Assembly (NCBI GenBank): GCA_026397315.1
Contig: JAPLVC010000006.1
Span: 95,975 to 159,974 of the forward strand
DNA length: 64,000 nt
Direction: 5' to 3'
Origin: Candidatus Aenigmatarchaeota archaeon
GTDB taxonomy: Archaea > Aenigmatarchaeota > Aenigmatarchaeia > QMZP01 > QMZT01
Position numbers and translations under genes: made by a program. Each line of letters starts with the position of its first letter. Positions within the stretch are counted from its first letter, which is position 1. Below the pieces are notes generated by a model. It had not been told where the DNA came from, did not search any database, and saw only the letters and a program-made list of their open reading frames with translations. Positions 42,775 to 43,704 of this stretch are shown here, in pieces.

Positions 42775-43518
42775 ATGAAATTAAAATTTCATTCAAAAAT
42801 TGAATTAAGCAAAAGAGATAAAGAAAAAGGTTTGATTCTGCCTAAAAAATCGTCCGAAGATCTTGCTTATTTATGTGGTGTTTTGGCTGGAGATGGAAAT
42901 ATTAACGTGAGAAAAGAAAGATATGATTTTGCCATAAAGTGTGTGGGGAACCCGAAAGATGAGATTGAATTCTATGATTATGTCATCAAAGAAAAATTCC
43001 ATAAAGTTTTTGGGGCTGAGATTAAACCAAAACTGCACGATAAAGGAACTACCTATGGATTCAGTTTCTGGTCAACGTCATTGGTTAGATTTTTAAATGA
43101 AGAGATAGGTTTGCCTATTGGTAAGAAATATGATAAGTTAAAAATCCCTTCTATTTTCAAGTCTGATAAAAAATTATCAGCGGCTTTTATAAGGGGTTTG
43201 GCTGATACTGATTTTTGTTTGACTTTCAAGAAGAATCGCAAAACAGTTCCTTATTATCCTGTCATAGTTGGAGTATCAAAAAGTGAGCTTTTTATGAAAG
43301 AAGTAATGAATCACCTGAAAGGTTTAGGTTTTTCTGTTTGTTTCGAGAATCGCAGAGAATTTGACAAAAGAGTAAACAAAAACGTTTTCACTTCAAAAAT
43401 TTATCTCAATGGAGAAAAACAACTAGCATTATGGATGTCTGAAATTGGGTTTGAACATCCAAAAAATCTGAAAAAGTTCAATTCTCATATGAAATATAAT
43501 AGCGGGGGATGGATTTGA
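42775..43518 (+). CDS. double-motif LAGLIDADG homing endonuclease, free-standing
   Basis: LAYLCGVLAGDGNI and AAFIRGLADTDFCL motifs ~100 aa apart; very AT-rich gene. Confidence 0.8.
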   Translation: MKLKFHSKIELSKRDKEKGLILPKKSSEDLAYLCGVLAGDGNINVRKERYDFAIKCVGNPKDEIEFYDYVIKEKFHKVFGAEIKPKLHDKGTTYGFSFWSTSLVRFLNEEIGLPIGKKYDKLKIPSIFKSDKKLSAAFIRGLADTDFCLTFKKNRKTVPYYPVIVGVSKSELFMKEVMNHLKGLGFSVCFENRREFDKRVNKNVFTSKIYLNGEKQLALWMSEIGFEHPKNLKKFNSHMKYNSGGWI

Positions 43519-43704
43519 ACCATCGACCTTTTCCCGAATCGTGATTTTCATCACGCTTCACTGGGTGTCCCACTGGAACTAGTTCCAGCGATCCTAGAGC
43601 CGCTATGGTACTGGAATCCATTGTTTTCACAAAGGATTGGCCCAGCGAGCACTCCAGGCGTTGAGAGCAACCGAATAATTCGATATGCTTTGCTCCACCC
43701 CGCT
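43500..43704 (-). tRNA. tRNA-like gene (A1-U72 acceptor) with ~130-nt structured insertion(s); isotype unresolved
   Basis: AGCGGGG-TG-GAGC 5' end, T-arm GATGG-TTCAAAT-CCATC, 3' CCCCGCT-A; interior has CGTGAT-GAAA-ATCACG hairpin, CTGGAACTAGTTCCAG palindrome, GCCTGGAGTGCTC D-loop-like segment. Confidence 0.5.

Follow-up and report, generated by a model that had tools for sequence, protein, structure and literature searches.

How can a stretch of DNA that begins and ends as a tRNA gene leave no place for an anticodon arm? The question is raised by a 205-nucleotide (nt) locus on the minus strand of the window, by which we mean the whole 64,000-nt stretch of Candidatus Aenigmatarchaeota archaeon DNA analysed here (contig JAPLVC010000006.1). 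Read 5' to 3', the locus runs AGCGGGGTGGAGC...GATGGTTCAAATCCATCCCCCGCTA. A first-pass annotation made from the letters alone had pointed to an acceptor stem AGCGGGG/CCCCGCU with an A1-U72 pair and A73, a T-arm GATGG-TTCAAAT-CCATC, a D-stem GAGC...GCTC with the D-loop AGCCTGGAGT, a hairpin CGTGAT-GAAA-ATCACG and a 16-nt palindrome (CTGGAACTAGTTCCAG). All of these were found, the hairpin at tRNA coordinates 150-165, within what we assign as the 43/44 intron, and the palindrome at 117-132. The annotation had been unable to place a single anticodon arm, and had offered either a tRNA with two or three introns, one of them in the variable region, or a structured RNA derived from a tRNA.

From sequence comparison we conclude with high confidence that the region is the initiator tRNA-Met gene of an Aenigmarchaeota (DPANN) archaeon, and that it carries four short bulge-helix-bulge (BHB) introns at positions 14/15, 32/33, 37/38 and 43/44 (Table 1). 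The kind of gene first proposed, with its variable-region intron, was therefore the right one, while the number of introns was set too low. The difficulty with the anticodon arm was real, since the arm is split by the 32/33 and 37/38 introns.

Table 1. Coordinates in the window of the predicted tRNA gene, its parts and its neighbouring features
Feature	Position	Strand	Remarks
Initiator tRNA-Met(CAU), complete gene (predicted)	43500..43704	minus	205 nt, 5 exons and 4 introns; CCA not encoded
Exon 1, tRNA positions 1-14, AGCGGGGUGGAGCA	43691..43704	minus	joined directly to exon 2 in L006, L017, L004, L093
Intron 1, D-loop, 14/15, 31 nt	43660..43690	minus	tRNA coordinates 15-45; HBh' motif
Exon 2, positions 15-32, GCCUGGAGUGCUCGCUGGGC	43640..43659	minus	comparison with orthologues
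Intron 2, anticodon loop, 32/33, 31 nt	43609..43639	minus	tRNA coordinates 66-96; HBh' motif
Exon 3, positions 33-37, CCAUA (C33 and the CAU anticodon), 5 nt	43604..43608	minus	loop CCCAUAA uninterrupted in L006, L093, L004 and others
Intron 3, canonical 37/38, 37 nt	43567..43603	minus	tRNA coordinates 102-138; hBH motif; holds the 16-nt palindrome
Exon 4, positions 38-43, ACCCAG	43561..43566	minus	comparison with orthologues
Intron 4, 43/44, anticodon stem-variable loop junction, 31 nt	43530..43560	minus	tRNA coordinates 145-175; HBh' motif
Exon 5, positions 44-73, AGGUCGAUGGUUCAAAUCCAUCCCCCGCUA	43500..43529	minus	comparison with orthologues
TATA-box-like TTTATAAA, putative archaeal promoter	43730..43737	minus	26-33 nt upstream of tRNA position 1
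Free-standing double-motif LAGLIDADG homing-endonuclease gene (predicted), 247 aa	42775..43518	plus	runs towards the tRNA gene, with an overlap of 19 nt at the tRNA 3' end
High-identity (about 88-97%) block shared with L001, L017; putative mobile cassette or conversion tract	~42680..43560		sliding identity profiles

The spliced product and its uninterrupted orthologues

The four inserts were first placed by eye, guided by the termini, the GGG/CCC pairs and the variable loop AGGUC, and the placement was tested afterwards. Their removal in silico leaves a 75-nt sequence (AGCGGGGUGGAGCAGCCUGGAGUGCUCGCUGGGCCCAUAACCCAGAGGUCGAUGGUUCAAAUCCAUCCCCCGCUA) that reads AGCGGGG...CUGGG-CCCAUAA-CCCAG...CCCCGCUA and that ARAGORN calls as tRNA-Met(CAU) with a regular cloverleaf. 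A sensible ARAGORN call needs at least three of the inserts removed, smaller subsets failing, and a 75-nt cloverleaf of the type of Rfam RF00005 and of archaeal initiator tRNA-Met appears when all four are taken out. Initiator identity in archaea and eukaryotes lies in A1-U72, a hallmark of the archaeal initiator, in three consecutive G-C pairs at 29-31:39-41, and in the anticodon CAU; the spliced product displays each of these. It also shares with archaeal initiator tRNA-Met the 5-nt variable loop AGGUC and the T-loop UUCAAAU, and differs in having C33 in place of U33 and a gene split in five.

The neighbouring PCNA gene (44550-45299, minus strand) places the host in Aenigmarchaeota, a DPANN lineage, although an exact look-up of its protein matched no record. 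This gene, and not the tRNA itself, was used to fetch about 170 syntenic loci. A spliced aligner located the orthologous gene in 27 of these, which together with the window represent 19 distinct alleles (true matches scored at least 94, background 12-54); the tRNA genes of L172, L174 and L175, which come from a separate sample described below, were resolved by Rfam or by eye and not by the aligner. In the loci L006-L009, whose PCNA genes are 99% identical to that of the window, the predicted exon sequence is uninterrupted and identical over positions 1-59, with a different intron in the T-loop, and a BLAST alignment of the window with L006 jumps from 43691 to 43659, skipping exactly the predicted D-loop intron. 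Other relatives lack other inserts: L089 (PCNA 97%) has the 14/15 and 37/38 introns without those at 32/33 and 43/44; L017 has those at 32/33, 37/38 and 43/44 without 14/15; and L093 has no intron at all, its gene being recognised by Rfam as a tRNA at 56.7 bits against a gathering score of 29. At the other extreme, L001, L002 and L010 carry the four introns of the window and a fifth in the T-loop. The orthologous gene as a whole holds between none and five introns, at eight positions (7/8, 14/15, 20a/21, 32/33, 37/38, 43/44, 53/54 and 59/60), and splicing in silico turns each of the 19 alleles into tRNA-Met(CAU). The inserts are thus precisely absent from orthologues in which the mature sequence is intact, as is expected of BHB introns.

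This comparison also fixed the register of the boundaries. Variants of the D-loop intron at tRNA coordinates 14-44, 16-42, 14-43 and 15-44 were tried and rejected, as only 15-45 gives the uninterrupted sequence of the orthologues, and some T-loop and D-loop intron boundaries were re-registered within runs of A. Intron 1 is precisely absent in L006-L009 and present in L001, L089, L102 and L105 with a covarying inner helix. Intron 2 is absent in L089, L006 and L093 and has homologues in L017, L023, L102, L105 and L106. Intron 4, whose boundaries are unique, has homologues in L001, L017, L106 and L175 with covarying inner helices. A separate observation concerns the two alleles with a 7/8 intron, L027 (~6386-6400) and L090 (~6187-6202), in which AGCGGGG is found a second time, 13-15 nt ahead of the gene start; the extra copy could be a trace left by the origin of the intron, or an alternative 5' exon.

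The exons of the window are 100% identical to those of L006, L017, L089, L090 and L094. Among 15 distinct spliced orthologues, more distant DPANN genes included, the exons are 94% identical per column and 99% of the cells of the cloverleaf are paired, with compensatory double changes in 11 of the 21 pairs, a number reached by none of 500 shuffles; sliding the pairing partner by 1-3 columns lowers pairing to 36-51%. The gene is accordingly under purifying selection for its tRNA fold, whereas the inserts vary from allele to allele.

The same comparison bears on the suggestion that the locus encodes a tRNA-derived non-coding RNA whose ~130-nt interior is a functional domain. The precursor does fold very stably, with a minimum free energy of -83.1 kcal/mol, where 200 dinucleotide shuffles average -60.5 +/- 4.3 and none is as stable (z = -5.2). 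It holds several tetraloop hairpins, including a second GAAA hairpin, TTGT-GAAA-ACAA, in the 32/33 intron, and its minimum-energy structure includes both the acceptor stem and the T-arm. However, the interior consists of four modules that are separately present or absent in close relatives, none of which keeps it as a whole, and conservation is concentrated in the exons and not in the inserts. As the first-pass annotation had advised, the locus was scanned with Rfam: no non-tRNA family matched, the sensitive scan returning a 17.4-bit partial tRNA at the 3' end and, besides it, only chance-level matches to rli48 and Tombus_3_IV. We therefore regard a structured RNA as extremely unlikely, and the interior is better described as four inserts.

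A different tRNA with one long intron can be dismissed almost entirely. With lowered thresholds (-i0,200 -ps80) ARAGORN does return a tRNA-Val(cac) with a 133-nt intron, i(29,133), and a generic BHB scan of the 205 nt, which is too unspecific to define introns alone, yields a 68-nt candidate at 37/38 with an 8-bp outer helix that would give the anticodon AAU. Such models appear at the lowered threshold only, the D-arm of the tRNA-Val(CAC) model is poor, and no orthologue fits either of them, while the uninterrupted genes of the relatives are recovered base for base with the four-intron model. Moreover, since L089 has the 37/38 intron without the 32/33 intron, these are two separate introns and not one.

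It could also be supposed that the locus is a dead tRNA gene, filled with insertions and making no functional tRNA. Standard detectors miss it, ARAGORN (by default and with the intron option) and an Rfam scan at gathering thresholds both giving nothing at the unspliced locus, and a selfish endonuclease gene overlaps its 3' end. Against this, the exons are the same as those of several orthologues and the changes seen are compensatory only, splice-motif geometry is present in every insert, the TATA box upstream has been retained, the intron-free gene of L093 sits at the same syntenic position, and no other initiator tRNA was found in the window. A pseudogene thus seems very unlikely.

Several points nevertheless weigh against the gene being a functional, four-intron initiator tRNA. 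The 37/38 intron has almost no inner helix (hBH) and needs the 32/33 intron to be removed first, and the 43/44 motif has only three of four central pairs in the window and two of four in L106. U33 is near-universal in tRNA anticodon loops, and is replaced by C33 (window position 43608, loop CCCAUAA) in all Aenigmarchaeota orthologues; as intron-free L093 has C33 too, we take it for a conserved trait of the clade and not for damage. U33 is kept in other DPANN lineages (L169, L170 and L173). While ARAGORN and Rfam found no other initiator tRNA in the 64-kb window, a second, uninterrupted copy elsewhere in the genome is possible. Finally, all alleles come from metagenome assemblies, and the exact four-intron combination of the window was seen in no other assembly. 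Taken singly, its four introns do all recur in further assemblies, and three independent assemblies (L001, L002, L010) yielded the five-intron allele.

The locus therefore offers a concrete case of the initiator tRNA genes 'missing' from DPANN annotations, ARAGORN and the Rfam model being blind to it, and the ~25 curated alleles could be used in training intron-aware predictors. With 0-5 introns at eight positions, they also represent an unusually clean natural experiment on the gain and loss of protein-spliced tRNA introns, whose origin and purpose are a long-standing question.

Splice motifs and a predicted order of removal

All inserts were scored against one fixed BHB rule: a central helix of 4 bp (H), a 3-nt bulge on each strand with the cut after its second base, an inner helix (h') and an outer helix (h). 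Intron 1 presents a central helix GAG/CUC, bulges CA^A and AC^G and an inner helix AGCA/UGCU. In intron 2 the central helix pairs CUGG (nucleotides 27-30) with CCAG, the bulges are GC^C and UA^C, and an inner hairpin AAUCC...GGAUU is closed by a GAAA loop. Intron 3 joins the anticodon stem to a central helix CCCA/UGGG with bulges UA^G and AC^A, and intron 4 shows CCC/GGG, bulges AG^U and AA^A, and an inner hairpin GAA-G-CGUGAU-GAAA-AUCACG-A-UUC. The pair counts for (H, h', h) are (3, 4, 0) at 14/15, (4, 5, 1) at 32/33 and (3, 3, 1) at 43/44, so that H+h' comes to 7, 8 and 6, respectively; among 65,094 random positions in the same precursors, H+h' of at least 7 occurs in 0.57% and of 8 in 0.08%. 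At 37/38 the counts are (3, 1, 0) in the primary transcript, and become (4, 1, 8) once the 32/33 intron has been removed in silico. The motifs belong to the relaxed classes HBh' and hBH.

The fixed rule fits most inserts across the 19 alleles. In homologous introns the strand beside the 3' cut is kept (CCAG-NA at 32/33, UGGG-AC at 37/38 and CUCA-AC at 14/15), while the inner hairpins have given way to sequences that are unrelated and yet able to pair. The 32/33 homologues, for instance, retain the CCAG-NA 3' end and have three unrelated inner helices, AAUCC/GGAUU, AAUUCGUU/AACGAAUU and UUUUGC/GCAAAA.

These features suggest a pathway from gene to tRNA, which we set out as a prediction. Transcription from the TATA-box promoter upstream would give a precursor of ~205 nt; an A/T box of the same type lies at about the same distance in most of 19 distinct orthologous loci. 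The endonuclease EndA would then cut each intron inside the two 3-nt bulges flanking the 4-bp helix, an RNA ligase of the RtcB type would join the five exons, the 5-nt CCAUA supplying the anticodon, and CCA would be added afterwards to the 75-nt product. The motifs at 14/15, 32/33 and 43/44 could form in the primary transcript. That at 32/33, however, pairs nucleotides 27-30 of the anticodon stem with the CCAG of the intron, and so competes with formation of the anticodon stem, on which the 37/38 motif depends. As the 37/38 motif is complete only after excision of the 32/33 intron, we infer an obligatory order in which 32/33 is removed before 37/38; in L089, which is without a 32/33 intron, the 37/38 motif is complete as encoded. 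Relaxed HBh' and hBH motifs need a broad-specificity EndA (PMC5829648), and such an enzyme (with an L3 loop) has been described in several DPANN lineages, along with 'unidentified disrupted tRNA genes' (PMC5829648). That this is a lineage in which both the enzyme and undetected disrupted tRNA genes are expected was counted in favour of the four-intron gene. It was also observed that the D-arm exon CCUGGAGUGCU (43649-43659) is matched by a complementary, conserved 5' part of the 37/38 intron (GCGGCUCUAGG, 43593-43603; CUCCAG in L017 and L023). This pairing forms in the minimum-energy fold, and might keep the precursor in one specific conformation.

tRNA genes with several BHB introns are well documented in Thermoproteales, Thaumarchaeota and ARMAN. 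As here, those of Thermoproteales (Pyrobaculum calidifontis, Thermofilum) and ARMAN/Micrarchaeota have short introns in the D-loop, anticodon loop, variable region and T-loop, with strict and relaxed (hBH, HBh') BHB motifs and a dependence on broad-specificity EndA (PMC5829648). The present gene differs from them in its Aenigmarchaeota host, in its four to five introns, in the range of 0-5 introns at eight positions among fairly close relatives, and in its 5-nt anticodon exon. The removal of one intron before the next motif forms, as predicted here, is a known feature of archaeal multi-intron tRNAs (PMC8450103). The paper on tRNAscan-SE 2.0 gives a maximum of three introns per archaeal tRNA gene (PMC8450103), and a full-text literature search found no report of four; with four introns in the window and five in L001, the known range would thus be extended. 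The nuclear tRNA genes of the red alga Cyanidioschyzon merolae offer a eukaryotic comparison, with at most three BHB-type introns, in the D-arm, at 37/38 and in the T-arm, and a removal order established by experiment; the parts of that report consulted mention no link to homing endonucleases (PMC3728597).

An endonuclease gene at the 3' end of the tRNA gene

The gene converging on the tRNA gene from the plus strand probably encodes a monomeric LAGLIDADG homing endonuclease. The protein only just passes Pfam LAGLIDADG_3 (22.9 against 22.5 bits), and a sequence search of the PDB with it returned chance matches only. An AlphaFold2 model built from 45 homologues reached a predicted local distance difference test score of 92.5, and predicts the two LAGLIDADG helices within an alpha-beta-beta-alpha-beta-beta-alpha fold. 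The best Foldseek matches of the model were I-Tsp061I, I-DmoI and intein endonucleases (probability 1.00), with PI-PfuI and I-SceI also found, and the motifs G39-D40-G41 and D144-T145-D146 are invariant in the 45 homologues. I-DmoI and I-Tsp061I have the same monomeric two-motif fold (target-normalised template-modelling score 0.71-0.73), are likewise archaeal and are tied to BHB introns of stable RNA genes, though they share only 14-18% sequence identity with the protein of the window. They are encoded inside archaeal rRNA BHB introns, whereas in the window the endonuclease gene is external to both the intron and the tRNA gene and runs on the other strand, its stop codon overlapping the tRNA end.

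The gene is present in four syntenic alleles (the window, L001, L017 and L106) and absent in 15, among which we count L091, where a distant LAGLIDADG open reading frame (ORF; 28% identity) is found in a different arrangement. It has more than 160 family members in DPANN. Eight distant members were sampled (L169-L176; 43-62% identity, unrelated gene neighbourhoods), and all eight abut, on the opposite strand, the 3' end of a tRNA-Met(CAU) gene that begins with A1 and is itself interrupted in seven cases. In L172 the tRNA gene departs from the typical form in having just two G-C pairs at the base of its anticodon stem. Altogether, the endonuclease gene adjoins the 3' end of a tRNA-Met(CAU) gene with an initiator-type A1-U72 acceptor stem in 12/12 alleles. 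Among the eight, the stop codon overlaps the end of the tRNA wherever the 3' end could be read (L169-L173 and L176), the 3' ends of L174 and L175 falling beyond the fetched sequence; over all alleles read to the tRNA 3' end, the stop codon overlaps that end or directly adjoins it. A literature search found no description of this association between an endonuclease family and the initiator tRNA.

Presence or absence at a fixed site goes together with a similarity above that of the host backbone, as expected of a mobile gene. Among the window, L001 and L017, nucleotide identity is 88-93% for the endonuclease gene, 77-81% for PCNA and 67-77% for the flanking genes. The high-identity block is sharply bounded, and comprises the 43/44 intron, the 3' exon of the tRNA, the endonuclease gene and ~100 nt upstream of its start; in the comparison with L017 it starts within the tRNA gene, near the 37/38-43/44 region. 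Identity is 90-97% between about tRNA position 43 and the far end of the endonuclease gene. A duplicated 3' fragment of the tRNA, of the att-repeat type left by integrases, was looked for and none was found. The simplest reading that the alignments suggest is a mobile endonuclease cassette that includes the 3' segment of the tRNA and the 43/44 intron.

The presence of the endonuclease gene coincides with that of particular introns. In syntenic loci the 43/44 intron occurs in all four alleles with the endonuclease gene and in none of the 15 without it (Fisher p = 2.6e-4, uncorrected for phylogeny), and an intron at positions 41-48 in 9 of the 12 endonuclease-linked alleles against 0 of 15 (p = 4.7e-5, likewise uncorrected). 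No such link is seen for the T-loop introns, although the endonuclease gene lies nearer to them. As L171 (with a 53/54 intron only) and L172 (with no intron) have the endonuclease gene without an intron at 41-48, the link is not absolute.

Two explanations of this link have to be weighed. In the one that we put forward tentatively, and to which we would give somewhat less than even odds, a widespread DPANN family of free-standing LAGLIDADG enzymes would be specialised on the initiator tRNA gene, cutting its intron-free form near positions 41-48 and spreading, along with the 3' segment of the tRNA, through gene conversion; an intron at 43/44 (42/43, 41/42 or 47/48 elsewhere) would break the site, protect the allele and travel with it. 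If true, this would amount to a 'collaborative homing' route for the gain and maintenance of protein-spliced archaeal tRNA introns, and would provide a reason for up to five introns in the initiator tRNA gene. In the other, which has close to an even chance, the link with 43/44 reflects shared ancestry or hitch-hiking, the protein targets something else or has been domesticated, and the introns are unrelated to it. The allele counts, not being phylogeny-corrected, leave room for hitch-hiking, and so do L171 and L172; furthermore, between the window and L001 the 43/44 intron is alike in 23/31 bases (by eye), against 89% for the endonuclease gene. On the other hand, hitch-hiking sits poorly with an adjacency to the tRNA 3' end that persists in every endonuclease allele through quite different gene neighbourhoods, with the absence of a link to the closer T-loop introns, and with a high-identity block that begins inside the tRNA gene near 43/44.

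Free-standing endonucleases beside conserved genes interrupted by an intron, and inherited together with that intron, are familiar from the collaborative or trans homing of phages, as in the cyanophage psbA intron with F-CphI and in T4 mobE with I-TevIII (PMC2790892, PMC2988022, PMC6083498). Those systems involve self-splicing group I introns in protein genes and enzymes of the HNH or Endo VII type, in contrast to the 31-nt protein-spliced BHB intron, the cellular tRNA gene and the LAGLIDADG enzyme, with its putative cleavage specificity, proposed here. With an apparently undescribed endonuclease-tRNA association and an intron ~30 nt away, the hypothesis that introns protect against, or spread with, selfish DNA becomes testable at the bench.

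Some details of the junction were also observed. At the junction in the window (43497-43518), the endonuclease ORF extends over 19 nt of the tRNA gene to a TGA within the complement of the T-loop, while that of L001 stops at a TAG, the complement of the tRNA-terminal CTA, a 1-nt difference shifting the frame. In L091 the distant LAGLIDADG ORF (4685-5311) shares its strand with the initiator tRNA gene and follows it at a distance of 107 nt; elements of this kind may generally insert at the 3' flank of the tRNA gene. The region that follows this gene is a rearrangement hotspot: a 114-aa predicted secreted protein or lipoprotein gene (42320-42664), between the endonuclease gene and a kinase-like gene, is missing from L006-L009 and L089 and present in more distant relatives.

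Further disrupted tRNA genes and repeats in the window

Long or non-canonical inserts were also found in other tRNA genes of the window, which was counted in favour of the four-intron gene, and the genome appears intron-rich overall. A hidden disrupted tRNA gene at 15590-15749 (minus strand) has a 5' exon GGGGTCGTGGTG(TAGC) from 15749, followed by a D-loop insert of ~85 nt and then by a part that Rfam detects at 32.2 bits; when the insert is deleted, ARAGORN calls tRNA-Pro(CGG). Two class-II tRNA genes are similarly affected. One, at 55851-55969 (plus strand) with a loop CUCAAGA of the Leu-CAA type, has a non-canonical 44-nt insert 5' of the anticodon loop, and the other, at 60981-61130 (minus strand) with a loop CUGGAAA of the Ser-GGA type, an insert of ~70 nt.

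A repeated hairpin, AAGCTCTTT-N5-AAAGAGCTTAAGCAGAAA, occurs at 15701-15732 (minus strand) and 27298-27329 (plus strand), with a variant at ~15560-15590 (minus strand), where none is expected by chance. One copy starts the D-loop insert of the tRNA-Pro gene, one lies directly 3' of that gene, and one is 11.6 kb away.

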